Assembly: GCA_039683575.1 (NCBI GenBank)
Contig: JBDKRC010000277.1
Coordinates: 1 to 50,213 of the forward strand
Direction: 5' to 3'
From: Armatimonadia bacterium
GTDB taxonomy: Bacteria > Armatimonadota > Zipacnadia > Zipacnadales > UBA11051
DNA: 50,213 bases
The notes under the pieces were generated by a model. That model saw nothing but the letters and a program-made list of their open reading frames with translations, was not told the origin of the DNA and ran no database searches. Positions 25,748-42,988 of the stretch are shown one piece after another. Position 1 is the first letter of the stretch. Each line of letters opens with the position of its first letter. Both the position numbers and the translations under genes were made by a program.

Positions 25748-25807
25748 GGGTGATCCTTTCGGCTGTCTCTGTCACTCGTTACTCGGTTGGTGTCACGTCT
25801 CTCTCAC

Positions 25808-26794: not shown

Positions 26795-27185
26795 GGCGAT
26801 TCCTCATTCAAGCTTCATCATGGTGCCTGTGCGGTAGTCCCGCGCACGATTGTCTTTGCGACATCCGGACCACCATCACCTCCCCGGCGTAGGCCTTGCT
26901 CCCCGGATAGGCACGACGCCTGCAGCGCCCTAAGATCGTTATATTGAGCCAAATGGGCCCCTCCCCCTACTCGATGCGTCTGCGTCCACTAGAGCGCCGT
27001 AAGAACCCCGTAGTGCGGCATTCCGTCAGAGGGGCGGAGGTCGCGAGCCAAGGAGGCAGGACGGCGGTCAGGGAGTCGAGACGCTCGAACGATTGATCAA
27101 ATGGCACGCCGGGGAGGATGAGCAGGCTGAAAGGAGAAGTCAGTCCTTAGCCACAGTACTCGCCTGGTCTAGGAGCAAGCATCAC

Positions 27186-30100
27186 ATGATGAAGAGAAGA
27201 GACTTGCGCCTCGCGTTGATAGCCCTCGCGGCGCTCATGCCAGTTTCGCTTGCACTGGCCGCCGATCCCATCCCCGGCAATCTCCTGACAAATCCCGGCT
27301 TCGAGCAAGCCGAGGTCGGCTTTCCTGTAGGTTGGCGGACCTTCGACGAGAAAGCCAAAGGTCTCGTTGCCCTGGACCGGCAGGAAGTCTTCGCAGGGAC
27401 CTACTCCCTGCGTGTGACCGGCGACCCCGCCGAAGCGTGGCTGCCGCTCTTCTCCGGTGGAATCAAAACGGAGCCAAACGGCGAATACACCCTTGGCTGC
27501 TTCAGCAAGAGTGCGATCAAGTCCGGCACGCAGATACTCTTCGCCCTCCGTGAGATCACCGCTGATGGCCAGTCGATACGCTTCAGCCAGGTGCCGATCC
27601 CGCTGCAGGGAGAATGGGCTTTCCATAGCCAGAAGCTCAAGCTGACCGAGAAGACTGCGTCGGTGCAGGTCTTCATCGTGTTGCAGAAGTGTGATGGCAA
27701 GGTCTGGTTCGACGATCTGGTTCTGGTGAAGGGCGATCTGCCCAATCTGGAGGCACTGCGGGCTCGCAAGAAGCAGCCGGCCACAGGCCCAGCCGCGCAG
27801 GAATTGCCTCTGTATACCAACATCCTGCCCAACGCCGGCCTCGAGAGCCTGGTCAATGACCAGCCGCAGCAGTGGACCTTCGTGGGCGCTGGTGACCAGC
27901 AGGGCGCCGCCGATCAGGCCTGCCGGTTCGCCGGCAAGACCTCCTTCCGCCAGACACATGGCAGTGGCGGCCTGCCTGCCAGCTACCTTCATCCGAGCAA
28001 CGCGATCAAGCTCGAGCCCAACAATACCTACCGCCTCTCTGCCTGGGTACGCACCTCACCCGGCGCCCGGAGCGCCTGGACCTCGATTCCCAAGGCCCGT
28101 CGGCAGCGAGTAGAGGGGGCCTGCCTGCAACTGATCTTCCTTGACGAGAAAGGGGAGAGCGTGACGGAGGCCTGGAGCGCTGCCGTGCAGACCGATGGCC
28201 AGTGGCAGCCGCTGGCGGTAGTTGGTATTGCCCCCGGTAACACAGTCTCCGCCGACATACGGCTCTACCACGGCGACTTGCGCGGCAGTTCATGGTTCGA
28301 CAGCCCGCGGCTAGAGCGAGTTGAGGATGCGGAAGACCTGCAGCCCCTCTGGGCGTTGCCCACCGACCAACTCGACACCGGCAGTCTGCCCCCAACCTGG
28401 CAAATGACCGGCAAAGCGGCCGCATCACTCGTCGCCGACGGAACCAGCAGGCAGTACTCTGTCGCCCTCCGCAATGGCGCAGCGGCTGTTAGCGAGCTTG
28501 TTCTGCCGCCGGTTGACGCCTCGTTTCCCGGCAGCTTCCGGATCTCGGGCGAGGCCCGTCAGGTTGCAGGTGAGGGCATAGTGAAGCTGGTTATGTCCTC
28601 GCTCAGTGCCGATGGCACGGTACTGGCGCGACAGGAGCAGCCTCTGGCGCTGACGGCGGACTGGGCCAACTTCATCGCCGACTACACACCCGAGCCAATG
28701 GCAGCCACATTCACCGTCGCGGTGGCCCTCTCCGGCGACGGCACGGCGGTAGACCTGCGCCAGCCAGTGGTGCAGAGGACCTCTCGCTCTAATCTCGCCG
28801 AATACGCTGCTCAGACCCTGAAACCGTCTGCCTCAGCGACGGCCGCCGCCGCCGCGCCGCCGAAGCTGCAGTTCGCGCCCTACAAGGGTCTGCCAACGCT
28901 TTCAGTCAATGGCGAGCGCCTGTCACCGACTCAGTACTGGTATGCAGATCCGCCCAAAGCCACTGAGATCGAAGCCTGCCGCCGCGCGGGTCTGATCCAG
29001 ACCCTGACTTTGGCAGACATTGACTGGTCCACAGACCCGCCGGGGATAGACTGGACCGCGTTCGACGCCCAAGTTCATGAAGTACTGAAGGGCGCTCCGC
29101 AGGCGTGGCTCATGCTCTGCTCCGACACGACCGCCGAGCATGGGAAGGTCTCGTGGGTGCGCAGTCACCCGGACCAGGCCTATGTGAATGACCTGAGCCA
29201 GGAGAACGTGAAGAGCTACAGTGGGGAGAGCCGCGCGTTCCCCTCCTTCGCCTCGACCAAGTGGCTCGACGATGTAAATCGCATGCTGGTCATGGTGATC
29301 AAGCACGTGCAGGCGTCCGATTACGCCTCCCGCGTCATTGGCTATCAGCTATCGGGCTACGAATGGTTCCAGTGGGAGTGGAGTTCGACCAGGATGGACG
29401 CTAGCAGCCACATGCGCGACGCCTTCCGGCGCTGGTTGAAGGCCAAGTACGGCACTACCGAAAGCCTCCAGAAAGCCTGGGGCAAGCCTGGCACCACTTT
29501 CGAGACTGTGCAGTTGCCCACAACCGCCGAGCGACGCCAGACTGTTGATGGAGTCTTTCGCGACCCCGTCGCACAGCGCCATGTCACCGACTTCTCACGT
29601 TTCTATAACGAATTGATAGCCGACGTGCTCATCAGCCAGGCGCGGACGGTCAAGCAGACGGCCGGGCCAGAGACGCTGGTCTCATGTTTCTATGGATATG
29701 ACTTGCAGATGTTCGATGGTCTGACCCGCGAAAGCTCCGCCCACCTGGCCGTGCGCAAGCTGCTGGACTCGAAGCTTATCGAGCTGCCCGGTGCTCCCAC
29801 CGACGGCTACCTGTATGAACGCGGAATCGGCGGCACCGGCGGTTTCATGACCTTGACGGGCACCTACCCCCTGCACGGGGCGCTGTACATGGACCAGCCC
29901 GATTTCCGCACCCACTGGTCGCCCCAAGATGTCGAGCGTACCGCTACCACGATAGATGACGTGAACATATTCCGGCGCGAATTTGCCCTGGCGTTGACGA
30001 ACGGTGTGCCGATCCAATACCTGGATTTCTCGCGAGACTGGACTATTGGGGATCCCCGACTGGTTGAAGAATTGCGGCGCTTTACCGAGATTGAGCGGTT

Positions 30101-30995
30101 CGCTCTGACGCTGGACCGCACCGCGCCCGCCGAGGGCATGGCGGTGGTCTTCAGCGAGGAGACCGCGGATTTCATCGGTACCGACCGCACCCTTTTCGAC
30201 GGTGGGCTGATCTACCACCAGCGACCGCTGCTATACCGTGGCGGCATGCCGCACCGGTACTTCCTGCTCAGCGACCTCGCCGACCCCGCTTTGCCTGATT
30301 ACCGGGTGTGGGTCTTCCCGAACGCCTTCCGCTTGACGGCCGAGGAACGCGCCCTCATCCAGCGCAAGTGCATGCGCAACGGTAACGTGGTGGTATTCTG
30401 CTATGCTCCGGGGATTGTGGACGAAAAGAGCGTCGCCACGGCCAACATGGAGCGTCTGCTGGGGTTCAAGCTGGAGAAGCTGACGGAGCCGCGCTACGCG
30501 AAGGTGAAGATTGCGCCGACTGCCGCCTGCCCCTGGCTGAAGGACAGCAACGGGCTCACGTACGGGCAAGGCCTGTGGTCGCCGCTGTACGCCGCTGTTG
30601 ATCCCACTGTGCAGGTGCTGGGCAAGTACGCCGAAAGCGACAAGCCGGGGCTGGTGTGGAAAGACTTCGGGAGCTACAAGGTGGTTTATTCCGGCGCGCC
30701 GCTGCTGCCCCCGGACCTGTGGCGCGACCTGGGGCGGCTGGCCGGTGCCAATATCTACTGCGAAACCAATGATGCAGTGTACGCTGACGGCAACTTCATC
30801 GGTCTCCATGCCCGCACGCCCGGCCTCAAACGCCTCAATCTGCCGCGCCGCGCTGATGTCTATGACCTGGTTCACCGCAAGGTGATTGCGCGTGGCGTGA
30901 CCAGCATCGAGCTAAAGATGAAGGGCTTCGACACCGCCCTCTTCTATATCGGCGACGCCGCGAAGGCCGAGGCCTTCTTCAGCCGGGGCGACTAG
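27186..30995 (+). CDS. Secreted multidomain protein: CBM4/9-like repeats plus GH42 (beta-galactosidase)-like catalytic and trimerisation domains
   Basis: Signal peptide, NLLTNPGFE...VWFDDL and NILPNAGLE...WFDS beta-sandwich repeats, FRRWLKAKYGTTESLQKAWG GH42-type segment, C-terminal GATase-like region. AGGAG RBS. Confidence 0.78.
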   Translation: MMKRRDLRLALIALAALMPVSLALAADPIPGNLLTNPGFEQAEVGFPVGWRTFDEKAKGLVALDRQEVFAGTYSLRVTGDPAEAWLPLFSGGIKTEPNGEYTLGCFSKSAIKSGTQILFALREITADGQSIRFSQVPIPLQGEWAFHSQKLKLTEKTASVQVFIVLQKCDGKVWFDDLVLVKGDLPNLEALRARKKQPATGPAAQELPLYTNILPNAGLESLVNDQPQQWTFVGAGDQQGAADQACRFAGKTSFRQTHGSGGLPASYLHPSNAIKLEPNNTYRLSAWVRTSPGARSAWTSIPKARRQRVEGACLQLIFLDEKGESVTEAWSAAVQTDGQWQPLAVVGIAPGNTVSADIRLYHGDLRGSSWFDSPRLERVEDAEDLQPLWALPTDQLDTGSLPPTWQMTGKAAASLVADGTSRQYSVALRNGAAAVSELVLPPVDASFPGSFRISGEARQVAGEGIVKLVMSSLSADGTVLARQEQPLALTADWANFIADYTPEPMAATFTVAVALSGDGTAVDLRQPVVQRTSRSNLAEYAAQTLKPSASATAAAAAPPKLQFAPYKGLPTLSVNGERLSPTQYWYADPPKATEIEACRRAGLIQTLTLADIDWSTDPPGIDWTAFDAQVHEVLKGAPQAWLMLCSDTTAEHGKVSWVRSHPDQAYVNDLSQENVKSYSGESRAFPSFASTKWLDDVNRMLVMVIKHVQASDYASRVIGYQLSGYEWFQWEWSSTRMDASSHMRDAFRRWLKAKYGTTESLQKAWGKPGTTFETVQLPTTAERRQTVDGVFRDPVAQRHVTDFSRFYNELIADVLISQARTVKQTAGPETLVSCFYGYDLQMFDGLTRESSAHLAVRKLLDSKLIELPGAPTDGYLYERGIGGTGGFMTLTGTYPLHGALYMDQPDFRTHWSPQDVERTATTIDDVNIFRREFALALTNGVPIQYLDFSRDWTIGDPRLVEELRRFTEIERFALTLDRTAPAEGMAVVFSEETADFIGTDRTLFDGGLIYHQRPLLYRGGMPHRYFLLSDLADPALPDYRVWVFPNAFRLTAEERALIQRKCMRNGNVVVFCYAPGIVDEKSVATANMERLLGFKLEKLTEPRYAKVKIAPTAACPWLKDSNGLTYGQGLWSPLYAAVDPTVQVLGKYAESDKPGLVWKDFGSYKVVYSGAPLLPPDLWRDLGRLAGANIYCETNDAVYADGNFIGLHARTPGLKRLNLPRRADVYDLVHRKVIARGVTSIELKMKGFDTALFYIGDAAKAEAFFSRGD

Positions 30996-31852
30996 GAGGA
31001 AGCCCTCGCTTCTCTCTGCTGCGCCAGTAGCTGCTCCATCAGTTCCCGGATCACTTCGGTGGAGTTGAGCGGCGCACACGGGTTGTCAATTGGCGTCACA
31101 GTCCCGTCCGGGTTCATGTGCACTGCCCCATATCGAGCAGGCCGCCCTGTCCCGTTCAGCAACTCCTCGTACGCGTCGCCGCTGTTGTAGTGCCAGAATT
31201 CGTACGGATAGGTTACGAAGCCGTGCCTGGCAAACAGTGCGGTGATCTCCTGGCGATTCCGCTGAGCGGTCTCGGAGACGAACGGAGAGGCCATCGGCGT
31301 GCACTCCGATATCTGCACATATGTCACGCCACGATCAACCTCCTCGCCGTTGTCTCGTTGGAACACGCTGACGTCCATGGCGCTGCCGGACATGTGCGTG
31401 CCCACCTTGGGGCTGCTTGCCACCAGCGCCCCTATGCGGCGGCACAGCAGTTCCACCGGCGGCTGCTCCTCCCCGCACTCCCACTGCACCAGGCGCAGGA
31501 CGGTCGTGAGCAGGCTCTTGCTCACGCCTGAAGCTTGCTGCATGGCCACAGTGCGGTAGGCGTCCTCCACCTTCAGCACCCACCCGCGCGCGTTCATCTC
31601 GGCGGCAACAGCCACAAAACGCGGTATCAGCCCCTTCCGCAGGTAGAACTGGCGCGGCATCCCGTGCAGGTGTGGCTGGTCGGTGAAGGCCACCTCAACC
31701 CCTGCTGCAGCGGCAGCCTCCGCGAGCGGCGCCATCGGCTCCCCGCACTCCTCCACCGGATAGGCGGCGATCTGTGCCATGAACTCGTCTGCTTCGTCCA
31801 TACTCGTGGTCCAGAAAGCGCGGCGGGCAGCGTCATCGGCTGGTGTCGTCAT
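30992..31852 (-). CDS. D-alanyl-D-alanine dipeptidase, M15D (VanX/DdpX) family
   Basis: DAYRT...Q, THMSGSAMD (HxxGxAxD Zn ligands), YPYEFWHY (ExxH). AGGAG RBS. Confidence 0.85.
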   Translation of the reverse strand: MTTPADDAARRAFWTTSMDEADEFMAQIAAYPVEECGEPMAPLAEAAAAAGVEVAFTDQPHLHGMPRQFYLRKGLIPRFVAVAAEMNARGWVLKVEDAYRTVAMQQASGVSKSLLTTVLRLVQWECGEEQPPVELLCRRIGALVASSPKVGTHMSGSAMDVSVFQRDNGEEVDRGVTYVQISECTPMASPFVSETAQRNRQEITALFARHGFVTYPYEFWHYNSGDAYEELLNGTGRPARYGAVHMNPDGTVTPIDNPCAPLNSTEVIRELMEQLLAQQREARASS

Positions 31853-32030
31853 TTGGGCCTCTCCTGAGTGCTGATTCTCGGGAACATCCTAAGCCGTGCA
31901 GCCTCTACCACTGCAGGGCTGCGGTCGGCCAATGAGGAAGGGAAGATCGCACGCCCTCCCTTCTACAAATGGACTGCCCTGCCCTGCTGGGGCGCCAAGC
32001 CCGCGCGCACTTCCAATGGTGAGAGATAAC

Positions 32031-35000
32031 ATGCACAGGTGGATACTGATGGTCTCGTTGATGACAGCCGGCCTCGCCGCTCAAGCCCAAGCCCTTACCC
32101 CCGGTCCACTTGAGTTTGTGATGAGTGAGACCGCCGGGGTTGCCGGCCCACGTGTGGCCACCGTGAGCGTCCCCTTTGCCAGGGGCGAGGTTGCCGCACT
32201 GCCGGGCGTGTCGGTGACGGGGAAGACGGGAACCCTCCCTGCCCAATGCCGCGTGCTGCACCTGCATCCTGATGGCTCCGTGCGGCGGGCGCTGGTGCGG
32301 TTTGTGTGGACCCCGCAGGCGAAGCAGAGCGAGACCTTCAAGCTCAATGTGCTGGCCAGCCCACCAAAGACACCCGCGCAGATCGGCGAGGCCAAGTCCG
32401 ACTCGTTCTCCCTCAAAGCCGGTACCAGAATCGTGCGGACGGAGGGTATGGGGCTGGTCATAGCAAGGGACGGCAAGGACGAGTGCCGCATCAGCTTCCG
32501 TGGTGTCGAGTTCCCACAGCGGTTCCTGGGGCCGGAGGTACGAGTGATCGAAGATGGGCCATGCTTCTCGTGGGTCAGTCTCACCTACTACGGCGGGTAC
32601 TGGAACGTCTACGCCGAAGTGCAGGCGGACGCAACCGGGCAGGTGCGCGTGGTTGAGCGCCTCCGCCGAACCTATGCAGGCGCGGTTCCCATCCCCCTGT
32701 TCGGGGCTGAAGTCAGCGGACTCCCTGCCGGATTGACCACCGACAAGCCCCAGACGCTGCCGTATGCCGCCACGGTGGCCGACGGCCCGCGCCAGTTTCA
32801 GTTTGGTGCAACCACGATCGCCCTGCCAGACGGTCCACAGATCAGGCAGGGACGGGCCAGTGTGGACGCCGCAGAAGACGGCTCCCGTCTTACCATCGTT
32901 CGCGACGCCTCGCTCGATCAGACCGTCGCGGAAGAACACAAACAGTTCCGCGAGGGACAGGAGCGAGCCGTGGAGTTGTTGCTGCCGCCTGCCCCCAACC
33001 CCCTCACCTGCGCAGCCGAGATCGCCCCCCAGCGCCGCTGTGTGGCCGTACTCGGTAAGTCACTGGTCTCATATGGCAAGCTGCAGCGGGTCCGGGAACT
33101 GAACACTGACCACGCGCTGAAGCTGGCCTGCCGCGACGGCGACCAGTGGGGTGACCTGACGGTCTCGGTCAGCCGGACCGCCCCCAAGTGGTCGATCACC
33201 GGCCTCACCCGCATAGACACGGGCTTGGACATGCTCGAAGACTACTACCGTGGCGGGGATCCCCGGCTGCGTGACTTGACCGTAAATTGGGCCGAAAACT
33301 GGGTCAGCCTCAAGCAGTACCACGGCTGGGACATGAACTCCTACGGTGGCGAGCGCTACACCATGGGCGCCTGGGACGCGATCTCCTCGTTCATCCAAAA
33401 GGGCATTCTGATGGTGGCCTACGCCTACGAGGAGACTGGCGATCCTCGCTACAAGGAAGCGGCGCTCAGCTTCGCCGACCGCATCGTCGAGCAGCTCAAA
33501 ACGCGGTGGTTCGTGGCTGGAACCAACGTAGCGCCCACGGCAATTGGTGGCGACGCCAACATCCGGCCTGCGTACCTGGGCCGCGACCTGGTGCTGATGT
33601 ACCGCTGGACTGGCGATCAGCGCTATCTGGAGGCAGCCAAGAGCATCCTCCATGGCCTCGCAGCCCTGCGCACCAGCGGCTATGGGTTGCTGCGCGAGGG
33701 CTACAGCGACCCCTACTCCCCGTTCGAGCGGCTCGTTACGGGAACCGATCTCGGAGTCACCGAAGACAACTCCGACCACCTCAAGCCCTACATCCTGGAA
33801 TATCTGGTGGAGGGGGCGCAGTATGTCTATGAGGAGACCAAAGACCCGGTAGCGCGGGAGACTATGGTCACGCTCAGCGACTTCATGCTAGGGGCCATGC
33901 AGGATGGGGGCTTTTGGAACTACGCGCAGCGGCATGCGGCCGAGGGCAACAGCATTGGCCACATGACAATCGAGATCGCCAACGGGCTGCTGAAGAGCTA
34001 CGCGCTGACGGGGGACAAGCGCTACCGGGACGCGGCCTTCATGTCATACCACTACCTCATCAAGGCCTTCGACACGTACGGCACAACCCTGGACGGCGTG
34101 GTTCCGCCGACCGACCGCAAGTACTTCTACCCCGGTGACCACTGCAGCCTGGACTTCTACCGGGGCAATGTCGGGCTCGACAATATCAGTCGCGACCCGA
34201 CCGCCTACCTGTTCACCGCCATGGATCGCATGCTGCGGATCGACCCGGAAGCGGACGAGTTCCTGCTGGCGCCGCCGACCCACCCACGCCACAAGTGGCT
34301 GATCGAACAGGTCCCGCTGGGCGGGCTTGAGGTAGTCCACGAAATCGGCCACAACTGGATCGCCCGGATAGACCTCGGCCGCGATGGAGACAGCGAGACC
34401 GGTGGCAAGTCCGATCTGGTGCTGCTGGAGGATGGCAAGCCCCTCGGTCCGGGGCACTCGCTGCACCAGTCGATCCGCGATGAAGGCCAGGGCCGGTACA
34501 GCCACTGGACGCGCAACTCGCTGTACTTCTCCACGGGCGACAATTCCGACCCGCTGACCAATGGGCGCAAGTACACGTGGTACTTCGGCTCTGCTGGCCA
34601 GATCCCGCCAGCCGGTCAGCAGCAGACCATACCGACGATCAACACTGCCTTCGGCAATCGCAAGTCACACCTCTCAGTGGCGATCTACGAGCGCGGCCTG
34701 CAGGCCGAGCGCGAGAAGCGCTACGAAGATGCCATCGCGGTCTGGGAGGACGTCCTCAAGCAGTGGCCCGACTGCGCACCGGAGCTATACCGGCAGATTG
34801 GGCTATGGGAAGCCGCGGGCACGCCAGACCAGATGCTCGCCACCTGCAGGCGGTTTCTGAAGACCTTCCCAACTCACGACCGCGCCCCCGAGGTCCGGAT
34901 GAAGCTGGTGACGTGGCTGCTGGCCCACGAGCAGAGGAACGAGGCGCAGGAGCTTCTGGCTGAACTGGCAAAGAGCGCTCCGGGAACCCCGTGGGGTGAA

Positions 35001-35555
35001 GAAGCAGCAGTGCGCCTGTGGCGCGAATGCGGCATCGGTGACGCCCCGGCGACGCTGATCCGCGCCGCTAAGGGCACCGCGCCTCAGCCGCTGACGGCCC
35101 TGCGGGCAGCGGATGGCCTCAAGTCGGAGGTTGCCCCGCAGATCGGTGCCGCGTATGACGACACCAACCTGTATCTCAAGCTCGTCCTGCCAGGGGCGCC
35201 GGCCGGCGCCGGTGAGAAGCTGTCTCTCTTCTTGGACCCGACGGGGACGATGACAAGCTACCAGGTGTATGCGGTGAGCCAGGATGGCACCACAACCGAG
35301 CGGCCCGCGATGTGGCACAATCGCCTGCAGGGCTTCGTGCCCGGTCAGGGCTGGCAGGTGAAAGTGACACAGGGGGATGGCTGGATTGCGGACGTGACGA
35401 TCCCCTTCAGCAAGCTGGGCTTCAGGCCAGAACCAGGCCGCCACACCTGGCGCCTCGGCTACCGCTGGGACAGTACCCGGGGCACGATGCTATGGCGACC
35501 CGCGATGCCGTGGTATGTGCGACCGCATGACTGCGGCTGGGTCGTGTTTCAGTGA
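32031..35555 (+). CDS. Secreted mosaic protein: YetA/PL26-like N-terminus, alpha/alpha-toroid, small His-rich module, TPR region, CBM9-like C-terminus
   Basis: Signal peptide MHRWILMVSLMTAGLAAQAQA, SVPFARG...PAQCRVL..HPDGSVR, repeated Y..TGD.RY..AA helices, TPR-like RYEDAIAVWE..LKQWP, AAYDDTNLYL...W.ADVTIPFSKLG. Confidence 0.7.
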   Translation: MHRWILMVSLMTAGLAAQAQALTPGPLEFVMSETAGVAGPRVATVSVPFARGEVAALPGVSVTGKTGTLPAQCRVLHLHPDGSVRRALVRFVWTPQAKQSETFKLNVLASPPKTPAQIGEAKSDSFSLKAGTRIVRTEGMGLVIARDGKDECRISFRGVEFPQRFLGPEVRVIEDGPCFSWVSLTYYGGYWNVYAEVQADATGQVRVVERLRRTYAGAVPIPLFGAEVSGLPAGLTTDKPQTLPYAATVADGPRQFQFGATTIALPDGPQIRQGRASVDAAEDGSRLTIVRDASLDQTVAEEHKQFREGQERAVELLLPPAPNPLTCAAEIAPQRRCVAVLGKSLVSYGKLQRVRELNTDHALKLACRDGDQWGDLTVSVSRTAPKWSITGLTRIDTGLDMLEDYYRGGDPRLRDLTVNWAENWVSLKQYHGWDMNSYGGERYTMGAWDAISSFIQKGILMVAYAYEETGDPRYKEAALSFADRIVEQLKTRWFVAGTNVAPTAIGGDANIRPAYLGRDLVLMYRWTGDQRYLEAAKSILHGLAALRTSGYGLLREGYSDPYSPFERLVTGTDLGVTEDNSDHLKPYILEYLVEGAQYVYEETKDPVARETMVTLSDFMLGAMQDGGFWNYAQRHAAEGNSIGHMTIEIANGLLKSYALTGDKRYRDAAFMSYHYLIKAFDTYGTTLDGVVPPTDRKYFYPGDHCSLDFYRGNVGLDNISRDPTAYLFTAMDRMLRIDPEADEFLLAPPTHPRHKWLIEQVPLGGLEVVHEIGHNWIARIDLGRDGDSETGGKSDLVLLEDGKPLGPGHSLHQSIRDEGQGRYSHWTRNSLYFSTGDNSDPLTNGRKYTWYFGSAGQIPPAGQQQTIPTINTAFGNRKSHLSVAIYERGLQAEREKRYEDAIAVWEDVLKQWPDCAPELYRQIGLWEAAGTPDQMLATCRRFLKTFPTHDRAPEVRMKLVTWLLAHEQRNEAQELLAELAKSAPGTPWGEEAAVRLWRECGIGDAPATLIRAAKGTAPQPLTALRAADGLKSEVAPQIGAAYDDTNLYLKLVLPGAPAGAGEKLSLFLDPTGTMTSYQVYAVSQDGTTTERPAMWHNRLQGFVPGQGWQVKVTQGDGWIADVTIPFSKLGFRPEPGRHTWRLGYRWDSTRGTMLWRPAMPWYVRPHDCGWVVFQ

Positions 35556-35679: not shown

Positions 35680-36456
35680 TCAGGGCCGGTACGACCACAG
35701 CCTCAGGTGTCGTGCCAGGCCGTTCACGGCCACCGCGGCGATGTACCCCGGGGCGGGATACAGGGAATGAAGGCTGTAGTGTTCTTGCTTGTCGTCTGCC
35801 GGCAAGGCGCCAACCTCGAGCTTCTGGCCCACCAGGCGCGGTTCCGCTGCCTCTAGTGATACCTCGACCGAAAACCCGTCCAGGGCGGTTCCGAGGCCTA
35901 CTCCAGTCAGTTTGAGCAGAGCCTCCTTGCGCGTCCAGCACGCAAAGAAGCTCTCCAGGCGCTCGGTCTCCGGCAGCGCCGCCAGGATGGCTTTCTCCCT
36001 GGGCGAGAAGAGTTGCTCCGCCACCCGCAGCCAGTTCGGGTCCTCGCGGATGAGCTCGGTATCCACCCCAACCTCGCAGCCGGAGGTAACTGCCAGCAGG
36101 GCCACCGACTCGCTGTGAGAGAGGTTGAACGCCATGGACTCCCCGCTGTCAGCCAGGACCGGCTTGCCGTGCAGCCCGGCGGTCAGGGGCACCTTGCCCG
36201 GCAGGCAGTTCAGATACCCGGCGAGGACATCTCTCAAGAAGGCCTGGGCCAGGATGTAGCGCGTGCGGTCTCTGGCGTGGCGAAGCCGTGCCGCGACCTG
36301 CGCAGGACCCGGCGATAGCCACCCCTGTACCCGGCGCACGTCCTCCGCCTCGCTCCGCAGCACCGACGCCCATACATGAATCTCGTCGGGCTTGGGGCGC
36401 CGTGGCGCCGGTCCCTCGGGCCAATACAGTACTGGCCCACATTCAGTGCTGCCCAT
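35680..36456 (-). CDS. 4'-phosphopantetheinyl transferase (Sfp type)
   Basis: HGKP, FNLSHS, VGVDTE, FFACWTRKEALLKLTGVGL. The start overlaps the NRPS stop. Confidence 0.95.
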   Translation of the reverse strand: MGSTECGPVLYWPEGPAPRRPKPDEIHVWASVLRSEAEDVRRVQGWLSPGPAQVAARLRHARDRTRYILAQAFLRDVLAGYLNCLPGKVPLTAGLHGKPVLADSGESMAFNLSHSESVALLAVTSGCEVGVDTELIREDPNWLRVAEQLFSPREKAILAALPETERLESFFACWTRKEALLKLTGVGLGTALDGFSVEVSLEAAEPRLVGQKLEVGALPADDKQEHYSLHSLYPAPGYIAAVAVNGLARHLRLWSYRP

Positions 36457-39400
36457 CCAACGCCTCCAGGTGCTTGGACACATGGTCCGCCAGGGTCTCG
36501 ACGAAGGGGCTATGCATCATTCGCCCATGTATCCCCCGAACCGGGACCACCTCGACCCGGCCCTTCACAAGCTTGTTCCAGTCCATCGTCGGGTCGTGGG
36601 TGCAGAAGATGCTCTGCTGACGTGAACGGAACACCACCACGTCTCCCTCATATGGTTGCGGCTCATTGGCCCGGATGATGGCATCCAACCTGCGCCAGCG
36701 TTCCGGCTGATTCGAGGGGTCAGGCATCTCGGAACGTGGTTGGTAACCCATCCGCATGGCCAGCTCACGCAGCCGGTTCCGCCACTCGTGCCGTCGCTCG
36801 TGAGCAGTGAGGTACCTGTCATAGGCAAATGAGAATGGCAGGTCGGCCAGAGCCTGCAGCGGGTGGCGGACCGCGAGCAGGCCACGTGGACGGCGGTATG
36901 CCTCCAGGTCCACCGGGAAGTCTACCAGTCCCACGAAACCGACCTCTCGGCCCTGTGCTCGCAGTTGCCGGGCCATTTCGTAGGCCACCTTGGCGGCCTG
37001 CGAGTATCCCAGCAGGTGGTAGGGGCCCTCGGGCTGCAACTCCGTTAGCGAGCGCACGTAGCCCTTTGCGAGCGACACCAGAGTCACCTCGGGGTCGTCC
37101 AGACCGTCCTCCGGAGCTCGGACACCATAGACGGGGCGGTCGGGAGTGAGGTGTTTCGACATCAGAACGTAGCAGAAGACCTCCCCCGTCTCATGGTGGG
37201 CGCAAAAGAGGGACGGTCGCTGGCCCTCCGGCCTTATGGGCACGAGGCAGTGGGAATCCAGCAGCCCCTCCTCGGCGATGAGCGCCTGGGCGAAACGCCG
37301 GATCGTTGGGGCCCGGAACAGCAGGGGCAGTGGCGGCGCGTATCCCGTCTGCTCCCGCAGGCGCGCGAACAGCCGCGCTGCCAGTAGCGAGTGCCCCCCC
37401 AGCGTAAAGAAGCTATCATCCAGCCCGACCTGCTCGACCTCCAGCGTTTCGGCCCATAGCCCCTGAAGCTGACGCTCAAGCCGCGTCCCGCCGTCATCCG
37501 CGACACAGACCTTGGCGGAGGTAACCTCCGGAGCCGGTAAGGCATCGGTATCCAGCTTGCCGCTGGGGCGCAGCGGCAGCGCCTCCAGGAACGTGATGAA
37601 GGAGGGCAGCATGAACTCCGGTAGCCGCTGCCGCAGGTGTTCGCGCAAATCCTCGGCGGTCGCCTCGGCTGCGGGCGAAAGCGCCACGTAAGCCGCCAAC
37701 GTAGGCCCCCCAGGCGCCTCCTGCCACACGATCACTCCCGCCTGCTGAACCGCCGGGTGCTCCTGCAGCGCCGCCTGCACCTCCTCCAACTCGACCCGGC
37801 AGCCCCTGACCTTCACCTGCGAGTCTGCGCGTCCCAGGAAATGCAGGCTGCCGTCAGGGTTGTACTTCACGAAGTCGCCGGTGCGGTACATCCGGGCTCC
37901 CGGCATCTTGCGGAAGGGATCAGGGAGGAAGCGCTCGCTCATGAGATCCGGGCGGTTCAGGTACCCTCTGGCCACTCCCACTCCTCCGATGTACAACTCC
38001 CCGCGACTACCCAGGGGCACAGGGTTCCGGTGTTTGTCGAGAACGTAGAGCTGCGTGTTGGCCACAGCCCGTCCGATGGTTGGGTGCTCCTCACACTCGC
38101 GCGGTAGCAGGTCTGAAGTTGAGACTACTGTCGTTTCGGTCGGGCCGTATTGATTTACCACCCGCTGCACGCCTGCGGCGTACAGTCGGCGTACCAGAGA
38201 GCCAGGCGCGCACTCGCCGCCCAGGATGACTGTGTGTAGGGTCTTGGGCAGTGCGCCCTGGCGCAGCAGTTCGATCAAGGCCGACGGCACGGCATCGATC
38301 AGCGTCACGGGACGTTTTGGCGGTCTGAAGATCAGGTCCAGCAGACTCTCGGGTATGATCAGGCACCCGCCCATGCTCAGAGCCACGAAGACCAGCCACG
38401 GCCCAACATCGAAGGAGATCGAGGTAGTGTGCAGCGTGCCCGCCACGACTTCCGGCGAGTAGATGACCTCGCGCATGCCGCTCAGCAGTGACACGCAGCC
38501 GCGGTGAGGCACGGCCACGCCCTTGGGCTTGCCAGTAGACCCCGAGGTATACGTGACGTATGCGATCTGGTCGGGATGGAAGCTCGGTCGCACCGGCGGG
38601 TGCCCTGGCGGCAGATTCCAGCTCTCCGGCTCAGGCACCAGGACCTTCACGCCGTCTGGAAGCACGCAATCCGGCGGTAGCCCGGTGGAGGAGACTACCA
38701 CCTTGGCCCCGGCATCCTCGACCATGAAGGCCAGGCGGTCGCCGGGGAAGGCCGGGTCAAGTGGCAGGCATGCGCCGCCGGCCTTGAGCGTGGCCATGAA
38801 GGACACCGGCAGATCAAGGGTCCGTGTCACGTGCAATCCGACCGGATCATCCGGTTTCACCCCCAACTCTACCAGTCGGGCCGCCAGAGCCTCTGACCGC
38901 TGATCCAACTCCTCATAGGTCAGCGTGTCGTCCCCGCAGGACGCCGCGGCGGCCCGTGGAGTCCGCCGCGCCTGTTCCCTAAACAGGTCGTGAACCCCCA
39001 GGTGCGCCGGATACGCATGATCCGTCGCGTTGAACTCAACCAGCAGTTGGTGGCGTTCGGCCGGAGTCAGCAACGGCAACTCGGAGACCCGCCGCTCCGG
39101 GTCCTGGGCGATCCCTGCCAGCAGAACCTCGTAGTGTCTCATCAGGCGCCGGATCGTGCCTTCGGCGAACAGGTTGCGGTTGTAGTCAACCCTGGCTTCG
39201 AAACCACCGTCGGCCTCGGCCAGTTCGATGGTCAGGTCAAACAGCGCAGGGTAGTAGGGAGCCGGAACGGGAAGCCATTGCAGTCCCCCCGCCTGCGCGT
39301 CCGCCTGTGGTAGGTGCGCCAGTTGGAGCAGCACCTGAAATAGCGGAGAACGGCTGGTATCGCGGCTGACGCCCAGTTCCTGGACCAGATGCTCGAAAGG

Positions 39401-40456
39401 CATTTCCTGGTGCGCAATTGCCTGAAGTGATCTCTGGCGTTGTCGCTCCAGAAACTCGCTGAAAGTGGGATCTCCGCTGAAGTCTGCCCGCAGCACGAGC
39501 ATGTTAATGAACGGCCCTATCAGAGGCTCGAGTTCCACATGCGTTCGCCCGGCCACTGGAAACCCGATGGTGAGGTCATCCTGGTCCGTATGGCGGTGCA
39601 GCAGCACCTGCAGGGCTGCTGCAAGCGTGGTGAAGAGGGTAGTGCGGCGGGCGCGGCTGAAGCTTTTGACGGCTGATATCAGTTCCTGGGGCATGCAATA
39701 CCGCACTCGCGCCCCGTCGAAAGTCTGCTCCATGGAGCGGGGGTAGTCCGTCGGCAGCTCCAGGGGCGCCACTCCTTCCAGTTCGTCACGCCAAAACGAC
39801 ATCAAACGATCCCGCATCTCCCCGCCGACTCTCTCGCGTTGCCAGACCGCGAAATCCGAGTACTGTATCGGCATTACCGGCAGATCTGGTGGCCTGTTCT
39901 GCACCGCCGCCTCGTACAGTTCCCCCATATCTCGCATCAATACGGAACGAGACCAGCCATCCCAGCACGTGTGATGCAGAGCCACCAGCAGCAGATGCTC
40001 ATCAGGCTGCAGTTTGACCAGTTCGGCCCGCATTGGGGGATGGGTCAGGTCAAAAGGCGCGCGGGTCGCGCTTTCGGCCAGCATCATCGCTCGTTGCTCC
40101 CGCTCTTCGCAGGGCAGCGATGTCAAATCGGTGACGGGTAGATCGATAGGGGAGAAGGGCTGGACCACCTGAAGCAATCCACCAGCACTGCTCTCGAATC
40201 TGGTGCGCAACATCTCGTGTCGCTCTCGAACCTGATTGAAAGCCGTTTCCAGCGCCGGCAGATTGAGGGGGCCCTTGAGCCGTGTGAACGCCGTACAGTT
40301 GTACAGGCAACTCCCGGCATCGTACTGGCTCATGAACCAGAGCCGTTCCTGGCTAGACGATGCAGGCGCTGTCGCGATCGCCTCCGGCCGCCGAGGAATC
40401 TGCATTCTAGACGGTTCTACCGCAACTTGCCCCGCCTGTTGTGCTTGGATCGTCAT
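36443..40456 (-). CDS. Non-ribosomal peptide synthetase module C-A-PCP-TE
   Basis: C: SQERLWF, RHEMLRT, HHTCWDGWS. A: YTSGSTGKPKG, NQYGPTE, GELYIGG.GVARGY, YRTGD, SGKLD. PCP: FFTLGGHSLLA. TE: GPYHLLGYSQA and a C-terminal His (GIHG). Confidence 0.96.
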   Translation of the reverse strand: MTIQAQQAGQVAVEPSRMQIPRRPEAIATAPASSSQERLWFMSQYDAGSCLYNCTAFTRLKGPLNLPALETAFNQVRERHEMLRTRFESSAGGLLQVVQPFSPIDLPVTDLTSLPCEEREQRAMMLAESATRAPFDLTHPPMRAELVKLQPDEHLLLVALHHTCWDGWSRSVLMRDMGELYEAAVQNRPPDLPVMPIQYSDFAVWQRERVGGEMRDRLMSFWRDELEGVAPLELPTDYPRSMEQTFDGARVRYCMPQELISAVKSFSRARRTTLFTTLAAALQVLLHRHTDQDDLTIGFPVAGRTHVELEPLIGPFINMLVLRADFSGDPTFSEFLERQRQRSLQAIAHQEMPFEHLVQELGVSRDTSRSPLFQVLLQLAHLPQADAQAGGLQWLPVPAPYYPALFDLTIELAEADGGFEARVDYNRNLFAEGTIRRLMRHYEVLLAGIAQDPERRVSELPLLTPAERHQLLVEFNATDHAYPAHLGVHDLFREQARRTPRAAAASCGDDTLTYEELDQRSEALAARLVELGVKPDDPVGLHVTRTLDLPVSFMATLKAGGACLPLDPAFPGDRLAFMVEDAGAKVVVSSTGLPPDCVLPDGVKVLVPEPESWNLPPGHPPVRPSFHPDQIAYVTYTSGSTGKPKGVAVPHRGCVSLLSGMREVIYSPEVVAGTLHTTSISFDVGPWLVFVALSMGGCLIIPESLLDLIFRPPKRPVTLIDAVPSALIELLRQGALPKTLHTVILGGECAPGSLVRRLYAAGVQRVVNQYGPTETTVVSTSDLLPRECEEHPTIGRAVANTQLYVLDKHRNPVPLGSRGELYIGGVGVARGYLNRPDLMSERFLPDPFRKMPGARMYRTGDFVKYNPDGSLHFLGRADSQVKVRGCRVELEEVQAALQEHPAVQQAGVIVWQEAPGGPTLAAYVALSPAAEATAEDLREHLRQRLPEFMLPSFITFLEALPLRPSGKLDTDALPAPEVTSAKVCVADDGGTRLERQLQGLWAETLEVEQVGLDDSFFTLGGHSLLAARLFARLREQTGYAPPLPLLFRAPTIRRFAQALIAEEGLLDSHCLVPIRPEGQRPSLFCAHHETGEVFCYVLMSKHLTPDRPVYGVRAPEDGLDDPEVTLVSLAKGYVRSLTELQPEGPYHLLGYSQAAKVAYEMARQLRAQGREVGFVGLVDFPVDLEAYRRPRGLLAVRHPLQALADLPFSFAYDRYLTAHERRHEWRNRLRELAMRMGYQPRSEMPDPSNQPERWRRLDAIIRANEPQPYEGDVVVFRSRQQSIFCTHDPTMDWNKLVKGRVEVVPVRGIHGRMMHSPFVETLADHVSKHLEALDGQH

Positions 40457-42213
40457 GCCTTCACCGCACTCGCCTGAACCAACGCCGCTTGCTCTGCGAC
40501 GGTTGGCCGGTCAAAGAACTCGATCACAGACAAATCCTGCTCAAATGCCACTCTGGCCCGTGCGATGACGCGTGCTGCCAGTAGTGAATCTCCCCCGAGT
40601 TCCAGAAAGTCTTCATTCACCCCGACAAGCTCGAGGCCAAGCACCTCAGCCCAGATGTCCGCCAGGACCGCCTCTGTCTCGGTGCGTGGCGCTACATACT
40701 CCGTCCGTGCCGCCTGCTGCTTCCGGTCCACGGCGCCAAGCCCCAGCCTCTCAGCCAGACCGATTCGCTCCAGTTTCCCAGTAGCGCTGCGCGGCAGTTC
40801 ATCCAGGAACACGATGCGCCGAGGCACTTTGAAGTCTGCCAGCCGTTCGGCTACTGCCAGCCTCAGCGACAATTCATCCACCTGGACGCCCTCGCGTGGC
40901 ACCACTGCTGCGCCCACGTCCTCGCCCAGAATCGGATCCGGTATGGCGAAAGTCACGGCCTCAGCGACCGCGGGATGCCTCAGCAAAGCGTCGTCCACCT
41001 CGCAGGGCGAGATCTTCTCGCCGCCGCGGTTGATCATCTCCTTGAGGCGCCCGCACACAAACAGGTAGCCCTCCTCGTCCAGATACCCCTCGTCTCCGGT
41101 CCGCAGCCACCCGTCGCGGAACACGCTCGCGTTGGCCTCGGGGTTGCCCTCGTAGCCGGACATGACGTTCTCGCCACGGATGACGATCTCGCCGATCTGC
41201 CCCGGCGGCAGGATCTCGCCCTGCTCGCCCATGGTAGCGATCGCGGTCCCGATAGGTTGCCCTACGGAGCCTGGTTTGTGTTTCGCCCCGGGCAAATGGC
41301 CCGCTGAGGTGCTGGCCTCCGTCAGGCCATAGAAGTCCAGGACCGGAACACCCCACGTCTGCTCCATCTCAGCCATAGTTGGCGTCGGCATGGGCGCTGA
41401 GGCAGAACGTATGAATCGAAAGGGGCGCGCCGCCACCACCTGCGGATAGCGCGCTGCCTGTCTCAGGATCGCCTGGTGCACGGTCGGAGAGGCCGTGTAC
41501 CACGTTGGCCTCAGTTCCTGCACCCAGCCGAAGAACTCCGGAGCGCTAAACGCCGTGCAGGCTATGCCTCCGCCGGCAAACAGTGACCCGAGAAGAACCG
41601 CTATCCCATGCATATGGAACAATGGCATAACACAGAGGCAAAGGTCGGCTGGCGTCAATGCCATAGAGGACGCCTTGTTCTCGGCCACAGCCAGGAGATT
41701 GCGGTGCCTGAGCGGCACAAGCCGGGGGCGGTCGGTAGTGCCGGAGGTGTGCAACAGCACCGCGATGTCGTCCGATCCCGCCTCCAGCGGCATGCGATAC
41801 CCGCCTCCCTGATCATCCGGTCGTAGGTCGCCTACCTCAGATACCTCGATTCCCAACTCGTCTGCCGCCTCGCGCACCGCATCCCCAACCCCCATCCCGG
41901 TGATCACTCTCCTGGCCTTCACGTCTGACAGGTAGAACAGAAACTCCTCCCGGCGGTAGCGCGGGTTCAGCGGTGCGCATCCGAAGGCCGCGGACACTGC
42001 CAGGATTGCCACCGTCAGTTCAGGGCCATCGGGAAGCACCACCGCCACTCGCTCCCCTGCCTGCAGCCCCGTCCTCGCCAGCGTGCCCGCCAGGAGTTCA
42101 GCTCGCTCCAGCAGTTCAGCATAGGACAGGGGCGCCTGCCCCGGCGCGGCAATAGCGAGCGCTTCCGGCCGCACCGACGCCTGCTCTCGCAAGATGTCCC
42201 CGATGTTCTTCAT
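40453..42213 (-). CDS. Acyl-AMP ligase (oxalate--CoA ligase-like) fused to a carrier protein; NRPS loading didomain
   Basis: LHTSGTTDRPR.VPL.H.NL, MPLFHMHG, PTWYTASPTVHQ, FIRSASAP, INRGGEKISP.EVD, TGKL, PCP FLELGGDSLLA. ATGA overlap with the NRPS; GGAGG RBS. Confidence 0.9.
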   Translation of the reverse strand: MKNIGDILREQASVRPEALAIAAPGQAPLSYAELLERAELLAGTLARTGLQAGERVAVVLPDGPELTVAILAVSAAFGCAPLNPRYRREEFLFYLSDVKARRVITGMGVGDAVREAADELGIEVSEVGDLRPDDQGGGYRMPLEAGSDDIAVLLHTSGTTDRPRLVPLRHRNLLAVAENKASSMALTPADLCLCVMPLFHMHGIAVLLGSLFAGGGIACTAFSAPEFFGWVQELRPTWYTASPTVHQAILRQAARYPQVVAARPFRFIRSASAPMPTPTMAEMEQTWGVPVLDFYGLTEASTSAGHLPGAKHKPGSVGQPIGTAIATMGEQGEILPPGQIGEIVIRGENVMSGYEGNPEANASVFRDGWLRTGDEGYLDEEGYLFVCGRLKEMINRGGEKISPCEVDDALLRHPAVAEAVTFAIPDPILGEDVGAAVVPREGVQVDELSLRLAVAERLADFKVPRRIVFLDELPRSATGKLERIGLAERLGLGAVDRKQQAARTEYVAPRTETEAVLADIWAEVLGLELVGVNEDFLELGGDSLLAARVIARARVAFEQDLSVIEFFDRPTVAEQAALVQASAVKA

Positions 42214-42246
42214 GCTCACACCTCCTCTCCCCTTGCTGTTACGACA

Positions 42247-42417
42247 TCAGCACGGCATCGGCGGGCGGTAGATCCAGTTCCATGCCGACATGGAACCCGC
42301 GCTCATGCCTCTCCGCATACAACCTTGCTGCTGCATGAGAGTATCCTCCGTCAGCCGCGCAGGTGCGGGGCCAGGCTTCTGACCCACGTCATGAGCAACC
42401 CCGGTCGCTACGCTCAT
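42247..42417 (-). CDS. Putative 56-aa small protein upstream of the NRPS operon
   Basis: ATG preceded by GAGGAAGAGGGA. Same strand as the A-PCP gene and ends 33 bp before its start. No recognisable family. Confidence 0.3.
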   Translation of the reverse strand: MSVATGVAHDVGQKPGPAPARLTEDTLMQQQGCMRRGMSAGSMSAWNWIYRPPMPC

Positions 42418-42988
42418 TCCCTCTTCCTCGGTGAGCAGAATCGTGCCCAAAGCGAACCACGTTGGGCGCCAGCATACTAGTGTAGCGCTGACAGTGGTTC
42501 CAGCTCCGGGCTGTTGATGGAAAAATACAAACCTCTGGTGGCCTCAGTCAGGCAGGGGCGCAGGGCGGGGATGGGTGCGGACGGGGACGCAAGCAGGGGG
42601 AAGACTCCAAGCAGGCCGGTGTCGGCGCTGGCTGTGCGTAGCAGGTCAGCCCGACAGTTAGTGCGAGGTTCGTGTGCGTCTGTGGAGGTAATTCCTGGCA
42701 AATCGCGCTGCATCCCGCGAACTCCCACGCCAAAAAACCGACCACCCTCCGACTCACTCAAGATGACGCCTTGGGAAGAGGATTGTTCGTGCTACGGCCC
42801 TCGGGCGCCATCGCAGGCCCCGCAACAGCGACGGCTCACCCACAATTGATCTTTCCCGGCGCAAACGCCGTCATAGTACCGCAACGGCTCTGCGTATGCC
42901 GGGGGGCAGCCGCTTGGCCGTGCGGGAGTTGATGGGTCTGAACTGGGTACAATTGTCATTCTGGGTTGGGGTAGGAGTTGGTGGCGGC

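Follow-up and report, generated by a model that had tools for sequence, protein, structure and literature searches.

The stretch of DNA analysed here, referred to as the window, comprises 50,213 nucleotides of contig JBDKRC010000277.1 from an Armatimonadia bacterium (assembly GCA_039683575.1), and between positions 35,680 and 42,213 it encodes a small nonribosomal peptide synthetase (NRPS) operon. In the first gene product an adenylation (A) domain is fused to a peptidyl carrier protein (PCP) domain, and this loader appears, judging by its sequence, to be a derived and divergent member of a large clade of PCP-fused NRPS starters that resemble oxalate-CoA ligases. On balance we favour the view that the operon is an intact three-gene assembly line whose loader activates a C2-C4 acid, more likely another one than oxalate, and whose product is an N-acyl amino acid.

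Organization of the operon

Three overlapping open reading frames (ORFs) on the minus strand were listed within 35680-42213 and were assigned as follows.

40453..42213, minus strand: gene 1 (P0001), loader didomain with fused A and PCP domains (Pfam, Protein Data Bank (PDB) matches, ribosome-binding site)
36443..40456, minus strand: gene 2 (P0002), 1337 aa, elongation/termination module with condensation (C), A, PCP and thioesterase (TE) domains (Pfam, NCBIfam, orthologue P0137)
35680..36483, minus strand: gene 3 (P0003), 267 aa, phosphopantetheinyl transferase (PPTase) of the Sfp/HetI type (Pfam ACPS and AASDHPPT_N; NCBIfam HetI)

An earlier note on this DNA had described an A-PCP, a C-A-PCP-TE and a PPTase gene, all overlapping, and both the ORF list and Pfam bear this out. 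Genes 1 and 2 overlap by 4 nt and genes 2 and 3 by 41 nt; the three genes with their own PPTase occupy about 6.5 kb, and the G+C content is 63-66% over the operon and its flanks. The listed ORF of gene 1 spans 40453..42219, with 588 aa if the GTG at 42219 is taken as the first codon. The likely start is an ATG at 42213, which a GGAGG precedes by 7 nt; because this ATG gives a protein of 586 aa, the same length as a 97% identical homologue, the end coordinate 42213 of the earlier note was exact. All five motifs quoted there were found in the translation (LHTSGTTDRPR, PLFHMHG, TWYTASPTVHQ, FIRSASA and TEAST).

Pfam detected AMP-binding (E 7.7e-65), AMP-binding_C and PP-binding in gene 1, Condensation (1.4e-101), AMP-binding (2.7e-77), AMP-binding_C, PP-binding and Thioesterase (3e-20) in gene 2, and ACPS (3.1e-16) together with AASDHPPT_N in gene 3. 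The E-values of the operon, which span 1e-13 to 1e-101, lie far beyond chance. HetI was the best NCBIfam match of gene 3, at 141 bits and thus below its cut-off of 370.

The loader is a close relative of oxalyl-CoA synthetases

Two domains were delimited in gene 1.

40774..42192, minus strand: loader adenylation (ANL) domain, residues 10-482 (Pfam AMP-binding 10-356, AMP-binding_C 407-482)
40477..40668, minus strand: PCP1, residues 518-581, with attachment motif GGDSL (Pfam PP-binding, E 1e-13)

The catalytic motifs of the ANL domain are in place, namely the TSGTT P-loop (with K166R), YGLTE, TGD, GRLKEMINRGGEKI and GK482. When the loader was compared with the PDB by phmmer, the top three matches were AtAAE3 (5ie0, 372 bits, E 3.9e-110), LsOCS (6qjz, 360 bits, 2.5e-106) and Pcs60p (8aff, 319 bits, 4.3e-94), while other ANL structures scored lower (MatB 229, FadD13 222, MenE 202 and DhbE 148 bits). 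An AlphaFold model of the loader, built on 24 sequences, reached an overall pLDDT (predicted local distance difference test) of 87.2, and Foldseek placed 5ie2, 5ie3, 5ie0 (39-40% identity) and 6qjz (target TM 0.86) at ranks 1-4 and Pcs60p 8aff (34% identity) at rank 6. Sequence and fold are thus closest to solved oxalyl-CoA synthetases, and the kinship claimed in the earlier note is a true one.

At 34-40% identity, the loader is colinear with AtAAE3 (5ie0/5ie2/5ie3), LsOCS and Pcs60p over about 485 residues, and its alignment with AAE3 contains no large insertion. The P-loop, PLFHxHG, TWYTAxPTxHQ and FIRSxSA motifs, the Ser289 equivalent and the catalytic Lys are common to all. The nearest relatives of the loader are short-chain di-acid ligases, and an Asp235-type residue for an alpha-amino group is lacking. 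Its best NCBIfam name, NF004511 'FadD7 family fatty acid-CoA ligase', scored 382 bits against a cut-off of 650, so that membership of that family is not indicated. The solved oxalyl-CoA synthetases are stand-alone enzymes which form a CoA thioester, whereas a PCP (Pfam PP-binding 518-581) is fused to the C-terminus of the loader and the acyl group would pass to an NRPS.

The oxalate pocket is altered in the loader of the window

According to an excerpt of PMC8905533, which cites the AtAAE3 structure paper, the pocket of AtAAE3 is lined by Val215-His216, Cys288-Ser289, Ala313-Met314, His319 and Lys500. Oxalate contacts are ascribed in that excerpt to Ser289, His319 and Lys500, and His319 is reported there to be conserved only among oxalyl-CoA synthetases (PMC8905533). 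In the alignment to 5ie0 the loader has Met203-His204, Ala273-Ser274 and Gly298-Leu299 at these positions, a gap at His319, and Lys482. V215, C288 and M314 of AtAAE3 are thus replaced by Met, Ala and Leu, and the oxalate-contacting His319 is deleted.

41308..41313, minus strand: deletion of two residues between S303 and T304, with loss of the His319 equivalent (5ie0 and family alignments)

The TEATHL of AAE3 aligns with TEAS-- in the loader. That the His which follows TEA in those enzymes is replaced in TEAST had been pointed out in the earlier note; in the alignment its position falls in a two-residue gap. The equivalents of Ser289 (S274 in FIRSASA) and of Lys500 (motif A10; K482 in TGKLER) are kept. 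Compared with the family consensus FHIHG / RS[SC]S / YGMTEA[AS]HQM, the loader reads FHMHG / RSAS / YGLTEAS--TS, and the changes that line the pocket are I203M, S/C273A and M299L; Gly at the Ala313 position of AAE3 is the bacterial norm. Among 199 columns conserved at 90% or more, the loader deviates at 26, compared with 2-10 in seven typical members, 30 in the homologue P0007 and 21 in the homologue P0008.

The deletion was found again in P0004, an independent sequence with 97% identity, and P0007, the sister of the loader, has Met203, RSAS and the loss of the His in common with it. Over the deletion loop (residues 291-310) the model is confident, with a pLDDT of 85-88. Since the remaining catalytic motifs are all intact and the twin shows the same condition, we read the pocket as remodelled and not as decayed. 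The acid of the loader is probably a small one other than oxalate, since the His is deleted, three pocket residues are changed and 26 of the 199 conserved columns deviate; this agrees with the caution of the earlier note that the missing His might mean a different acid.

A family of PCP-fused loaders across bacterial phyla

A search among 5.8 billion proteins was evaluated for its best 120 matches, all of which carry PP-binding (120/120). They are 47-60% identical to the loader, bar the 97% twin P0004 (586 aa), which comes from an Armatimonadia metagenome-assembled genome. Their hosts are Cyanobacteria, Acidobacteriota, Gemmatimonadota, Chloroflexota, Rhodothermaceae and others, and a few have a fused TE or C domain. 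TEA-x-H is kept in 112 of the 121 aligned sequences; the two-residue deletion occurs only in P0001 and its twin, and seven further members without the His diverge otherwise. The Ser equivalent of AtAAE3 falls in the conserved RS[SC]S motif of the family.

A scan of one genome per species returned at least 594 relatives, of which 80 loci were kept, the closest at 52% identity to the loader. A domains were recovered from 78 of them: 37 fused to a PCP, 40 stand-alone, and one (L018) split by a frame break. The stand-alone ligases are mostly from Pseudomonadota and about 505-555 aa long, although three of the called ORFs reach further upstream. FHIHG, RS[SC]S and YGMTEA[AS]HQM are common to all 41 'solo' rows (including L018) and to 33 of the 37 fused ones. 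The view of the earlier note that AAE3-like ligases are normally stand-alone does not hold in bacteria, where all of the 120 best homologues and 37 of the 78 A domains are PCP-fused.

The loader and its same-strand neighbours were searched with Pfam in 37 loci, one of 38 (L043) being left out as its loader was missed by gene calling. An NRPS C domain is fused to the loader or follows it in 24 of the 37, three of which (L028, L055, L067) have a thiamine pyrophosphate (TPP) enzyme in between; in L027 the locus ends inside a TPP gene after the loader. The loader type is not an exceptional one. Six of the 37 loci encode A-PCP-TE proteins, and the partners in another six are hexapeptide acyltransferases (L017, L021, L023), a LanB-N-like protein (L003), an acyltransferase plus a ketosynthase (L080) or none (L011). 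Stand-alone A-PCP-TE proteins of 844-896 aa, with a His-type pocket and without an adjoining C domain, were observed in L007, L012, L013, L014, L026 and L045.

A loader with exactly one C-A-PCP-TE module was found in L009 (Calothrix, one protein of 1906 aa), L016 (Bryobacterales, one protein of 1893 aa) and L072 (Chloroflexia, two genes), while L005 has an extra C domain and a PPTase upstream. L009, L016 and L072 thus share with the window the didomain, the clade and the layout, and L005 and L013 also have a PPTase nearby, as the window does. These three relatives keep FHIHG / RS[SC]S / TEA[AS]HQM, whereas the window has FHMHG / RSAS / TEAS--TS, and the first-module specificity codes of relatives of this type differ from that of the window.

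In a FastTree phylogeny of 105 A domains, P0001 is sister to P0007 (support 96) and P0008 joins next (88). Together with the His-type P0005 and P0006 they form a 100% clade inside the PCP-fused diversity, so that the loader, followed by its C-A-PCP-TE gene, is nested among PCP-fused loaders. P0005 (His-type) and P0007 (His-less) each come from one 8506-bp contig, probably the same one.

Several unusual arrangements were noticed in the family. L057:9971-13927 encodes two loader didomains in tandem, and in L001:11932-16953 and L010:9917-17641 the first module downstream of the loader contains a formyltransferase-like Formyl_trans_N/C domain that separates C from A. In L003:4179-10353 the partners of the A-PCP loader are not of the NRPS kind: next come a protein that has a lantibiotic-dehydratase N-terminal domain and a gamma-glutamyltranspeptidase.

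The literature searched, which was covered in part, returned no paper on oxalate-type NRPS loaders. Two candidate precedents for oxalate loading by an NRPS were rejected: PMC11730586 concerns formyl-ACP made via a folate enzyme, and PMC12751119 only mentions β-N-oxalyl-L-α,β-diaminopropionic acid (beta-ODAP). The didomain is a common type of loader, widespread across phyla and seemingly undescribed, and not a one-off.

Oxalate is the likely acid of the wider family

TPP enzymes similar to oxalyl-CoA decarboxylase (Oxc) lie directly after His-type loaders and before NRPS modules in L027:2274-3827, L028:11779-13416, L055:11855-13597, L067:6409-8178 and L019:1494-3014. Oxalyl-CoA decarboxylase was the best match of those in L028, L055 and L067 (302-342 bits against a cut-off of 557) and the second-best match of that in L027, and all five are homologues of one another (E 1e-92 to 1e-142). 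Such Oxc-like partners could act on carrier-bound oxalyl, for example to give a formyl donor. TPP domains were also seen fused to an A-PCP-TE protein, in L015:5323-9978.

PrpB-like genes of the phosphoenolpyruvate (PEP) mutase/isocitrate lyase (ICL) family, all below the PrpB cut-off, adjoin loaders at L010:8979-9824, at L023:4882-5736 and 8502-9341, and at L067:3469-4467. The PEP-mutase/ICL superfamily includes oxaloacetate acetylhydrolase. This enzyme is named as a microbial source of oxalate in an excerpt of PMC9485241, and the neighbouring genes may encode oxalate-forming enzymes of the oxaloacetate hydrolase type. Because of these Oxc-like and ICL-like contexts and the conserved pocket, oxalate is the likely acid of the family at large. 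Neither an Oxc-like nor an ICL-like gene was present within the 50-kb window.

The partner module and its amino acid

Four domains were delimited in gene 2.

39041..40372, minus strand: C domain, residues 29-472, active site HHTCWDG (Pfam E 1.4e-101)
37556..38983, minus strand: amino-acid A domain, residues 492-967, code DVWDIGQVVK (TIGR01733)
37280..37471, minus strand: PCP2, residues 996-1059, motif GGHSL (Pfam PP-binding, E 2.3e-13)
36446..37213, minus strand: TE, residues 1082-1337, nucleophile motif GYSQA and C-terminal GIHG His (Pfam Thioesterase)

The C domain carries the HHxxxDG motif of NRPS C domains. In the PDB it scored 289 bits against Txo2, 278 against Txo1 and 234 against TycC, which we take to be elongation-type C domains, compared with 68 for RzmA and 43 for CDA-C1, presumably starter C domains. 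It thus seems to resemble peptide-elongating and not lipo-starter C domains. In the tree of C domains, those that come first in L005, L022 and L072 fall into one group with it (support 97). A dedicated C subtype after loaders was considered and dropped: the first C domains do not form one clade, with 10 label changes where shuffling gave a mean of 14.

The A domain matched TIGR01733 with 393 bits, above the cut-off of 317. Its code, DVWDIGQVVK, begins with D (Asp235 equivalent) and ends with K (Lys517 equivalent), as in NRPS A domains, and the columns used to extract it were validated on related loci, where they return textbook-looking codes. Among 233 A domains of the 120 best-scoring proteins, the code of the twin was identical and that of P0137 agreed at 9 of 10 positions; no other agreed at more than 7 of 10. 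P0137 is a colinear C-A-PCP-TE protein with 61% identity, the code DVWDIGQVAK and the same GYSQA motif. DVWDIGQVVK matches no code that could be assigned to an amino acid; Asp 278 and Gln 322 may, as a guess from known codes, point to a small polar or basic side chain. A text search of the literature for 'DVWDIG' returned only unrelated plant papers.

After His-type loaders the first-module codes vary. We take that of L009 to be Ser-like, that of L016 Gly-like, that of L031 Ala-like and those of five further loci Lys-like, and behind the His-less loaders of L020 and L073, too, the code is presumably Ala-like. L016:9971-15649, a single A-PCP-C-A-PCP-TE protein with a His-type loader and the code DILQLGCIWK, is on these grounds a candidate N-oxalylglycine synthetase. 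Its neighbours are a LysR regulator and genes similar to those of homocitrate synthase, isopropylmalate dehydrogenase and aconitase.

Both carrier domains of the operon have the Ser for attachment of phosphopantetheine (GGDSL and GGHSL). The Pfam match of the TE is confined to the first 103 of the profile's 226 positions, while the TE of Pks13 aligns over the full length, and the PDB matches of this domain were 7crn and the TEs of EntF and Pks13. The NCBIfam matches of gene 2 to EntF, MxcG and SolG-type NRPS were all under their cut-offs.

Genomic surroundings of the operon

The operon is convergent with a giant GH127-like gene. On its other side lies a region shared with a divergently transcribed locus.

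42214..42895, no strand assigned: divergent intergenic region between the operon and a GT2 gene, 682 bp, presumed promoter region (no element recognised)

This upstream region is unusually long. Within 42214-42895 no sigma-70-like promoter or terminator was found, no Rfam match at E<=1, and no Pfam match for its short ORFs; the ORF 42247-42450 was considered as an MbtH-like protein and rejected for this last reason. The sole terminator-like match lies inside gene 2, and such matches were fewer than the shuffled expectation.

The divergent glycan locus encodes a GT2 glycosyltransferase (MftF/EpsD-like, under cut-offs), a pyruvyl transferase and a YdjC-like protein; two more of its products have no Pfam match, and one of these weakly matches glycosyltransferases. 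Across the 37 loci, sugar-type neighbours were found in six. In L009:4950-20397, the A-PCP-C-A-PCP-TE protein of Calothrix, with the code DVWHFSLIEK, lies among four GT4 genes, one GT2 gene, two FkbM-type methyltransferase genes and a flippase-like gene.

The remainder of the window is devoted to sugar catabolism. At 27093-35555 it encodes two giant proteins of 1300 and 1219 aa, whose only matches, to CBM_4_9/GH42 and GH127, are weak, and a gene for an M15 protein similar to D-Ala-D-Ala dipeptidase (30992-31852, minus strand) sits between them. A glycyl-radical enzyme similar to pyruvate formate-lyase (696 aa) and its radical-SAM activase (297 aa) are encoded at 7648-10628 (minus strand), flanked by epimerase, GFO/IDH/MocA, fucose-isomerase-like, PfkB kinase, enolase-superfamily and aldehyde dehydrogenase genes; this region is probably an anaerobic pathway for a sugar or sugar acid. 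At 24269-26794 (minus strand) a gene for an MlrC-like M81 peptidase adjoins one of the ornithine cyclodeaminase/mu-crystallin family, whose best NCBIfam match is archaeal-type alanine dehydrogenase. A supply of diaminopropionate by the latter (25808-26794) was considered and dropped, as it scored 182 bits for SbnB against a cut-off of 327, no SbnA-like partner was seen, and it lies 9 kb off behind two unrelated genes.

Proposed assembly line and alternative readings

In the assembly line that we propose, the PPTase of gene 3 would, by virtue of its family membership, turn both carrier domains into their holo form. The ANL domain of gene 1 would adenylate a carboxylic acid, presumably a small one, and thioesterify it onto its own PCP, while the A domain of gene 2 would load one amino acid (code DVWDIGQVVK) onto PCP2. 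The elongation-type C domain would then make the amide bond, and the TE would release the N-acyl amino acid by hydrolysis or transfer. As the His319 equivalent is deleted and the pocket carries I203M, S/C273A and M299L, glycolate, glyoxylate, pyruvate, lactate or malonate would be a more likely substrate than oxalate. Intact catalytic motifs and the conservation of code and TE motif in P0137 are signs of function.

Several observations weigh against this proposal. K166R in the P-loop and Q484E affect positions that are invariant in the other members compared, and together with the 26 deviations they could mean relaxed constraint instead of a new specificity. Ser274 and Lys482, two of the three oxalate contacts, are retained, and the His-less P0001, P0007 and P0008 do not have one common new motif. 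The TE motif GYSQA departs from GxSxG, and no transporter or acid-supply gene is linked to the operon in the window. The equation of a His-type pocket with oxalate is drawn by analogy from plant enzymes; when the literature was searched for a tested bacterial oxalyl-CoA synthetase, only passing mentions were found.

According to the primary reading of the earlier note, oxalate has remained the substrate of the loader, and an N-oxalyl amino acid is made. This agrees with the nearest solved enzymes, all of which are oxalyl-CoA synthetases, with a pocket that keeps Ser274 and Lys482 and stays small, and with the position of P0001 nested among His-type loaders, P0005 and P0006 being in the same 100% clade. 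We nevertheless regard it as somewhat unlikely. The deleted residue contacts oxalate and, in the excerpt of PMC8905533, is conserved only in oxalyl-CoA synthetases; three more changes line the pocket, 26 conserved columns deviate, and the loader is among only 9 of 121 members without this His. An Oxc-like or ICL-like oxalate gene is also lacking in the window.

A second possibility is a decoration system, in which the N-acyl-aminoacyl unit, instead of being set free, would be passed to a sugar or polysaccharide that the adjoining locus produces. The operon divergently adjoins the GT2, pyruvyl transferase, YdjC-like and weakly glycosyltransferase-like genes; L009, whose layout is the same, is embedded in a locus with four GT4 genes, one GT2 gene, two FkbM methyltransferase genes and a flippase-like gene; the loaders of L017, L021 and L023 pair or fuse with hexapeptide acyltransferases; and L010 has a DegT aminotransferase and L004 an epimerase, which brings the loci with sugar-type neighbours to the six mentioned above. 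The connection consists of adjacency, however, with opposite strands in the window, and 31 of the 37 loci are without such a link. Moreover, the TE resembles ordinary thioesterases of NRPS and polyketide synthases, and no acceptor or transferase was identified. As a complete account of the operon this is quite improbable.

It bears all the same on the fate of the product. A single N-acyl amino acid, as stated in the earlier note, is the simplest outcome of the architecture, but release of the free compound is not its sole possible fate, because a glycan locus adjoins the operon and L009 lies in one. The product is therefore best described as a likely N-acyl amino acid, free or, in view of the adjoining polysaccharide locus, attached to a glycan. 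Likewise, the description of the system as self-contained applies to the operon, which indeed has no tailoring or export genes of its own; it fits the surroundings less well, since the flanks hold the glycoside-hydrolase-like gene on one side and the divergent GT2, pyruvyl-transferase and YdjC locus on the other, and the relative L009 lies inside a locus of the latter kind.

A loader in decay, within an operon that has lost its function wholly or in part, is very improbable. K166R, Q484E, the deletion, the 26 deviating columns and the non-standard TE motif could be taken as its signs; against this, all three frames are open, every other catalytic motif is intact, twins with 97-98% identity keep the same features, partner code and TE motif are conserved at 61% identity, and the structure model is confident.

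Scarcely credible, finally, is a loader for a long-chain fatty or aryl acid that gives a lipo- or aryl-amino acid as in the initiation of lipopeptides or enterobactin: the FadD7 name, a gene order like that of EntE/B, EntF and EntD and the EntF TE among the TE matches would speak for it, but the FadD7 score is far under its cut-off and such a family name is an annotation only, FadD13 and DhbE score well below AAE3, the AAE3 alignment is colinear without a large insertion, and neither long-chain ligase kinship nor a starter-type C domain was found, the C domain being far from those of lipo-starters (43-68 against 289 bits).

Discussion

The proposed line, with a derived loader that takes a small acid, can be compared with three known systems. 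EntE, EntB, EntF and EntD of enterobactin synthesis follow the same logic of an acid-activating ANL enzyme with a carrier, one C-A-PCP-TE protein and a dedicated PPTase, and EntF is among the NCBIfam and PDB matches of gene 2, albeit with 439 bits far under the NCBIfam cut-off of 2400. Enterobactin, however, starts from an aryl acid activated by an A domain of the DhbE/EntE type, whereas the loader scores 148 bits against DhbE and 372 against AAE3, and nothing in the operon points to the formation of a trilactone. In the linear gramicidin synthetase LgrA, domains of which are high-scoring PDB matches for both A domains of the operon, the first amino acid is capped with a very small acyl group, as is proposed for the window. 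LgrA formylates by a folate-dependent F domain; in the window an ANL ligase would instead load the acid onto its own PCP.

The third system is the plant route to beta-ODAP, in which, according to excerpts of PMC8905533 and PMC9485241, an AAE3-type oxalyl-CoA synthetase and a BAHD acyltransferase lead to an N-acyl amino acid. It has in common with the line proposed here that the small acyl group of the final N-acyl amino acid is activated by an enzyme of the AAE3 type. In plants the intermediate is free oxalyl-CoA and the acyl transfer is the task of a BAHD enzyme, whereas the chemistry of the window would be carrier-bound and employ a C domain.

More broadly, and only tentatively, the family may represent a class of NRPS, so far undescribed, that start from carrier-bound oxalate or a related C2-C4 acid, the fold of oxalate ligases having been recruited for the starter module in many phyla. 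Some of its lines would include an Oxc-like step towards a formyl donor and some with a single module would make N-oxalyl amino acids. In the window the pocket would have been re-tooled for a new acid and combined with the unassigned amino-acid code, to give a new N-acyl amino acid that possibly decorates the neighbouring polysaccharide.

The usual starters of NRPS are amino acids, fatty acids, aryl acids and the formyl group. A starter module with the fold of an oxalate ligase would, if true, add very small and highly polar acids to this list. N-oxalyl amino acids act as mimics of 2-oxoglutarate and as chelators of metals, and one of them, N-oxalylglycine, which has been reported from plants, serves as a standard inhibitor for 2-oxoglutarate oxygenases. 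Because of these properties, a bacterial enzymatic route to N-oxalyl amino acids would be of interest to enzymologists and chemical biologists. Being small and a natural pocket variant of its family, the operon of the window is a convenient test case for acid specificity in the clade. If its product decorates a glycan, it would also link NRPS chemistry with the modification of polysaccharides.

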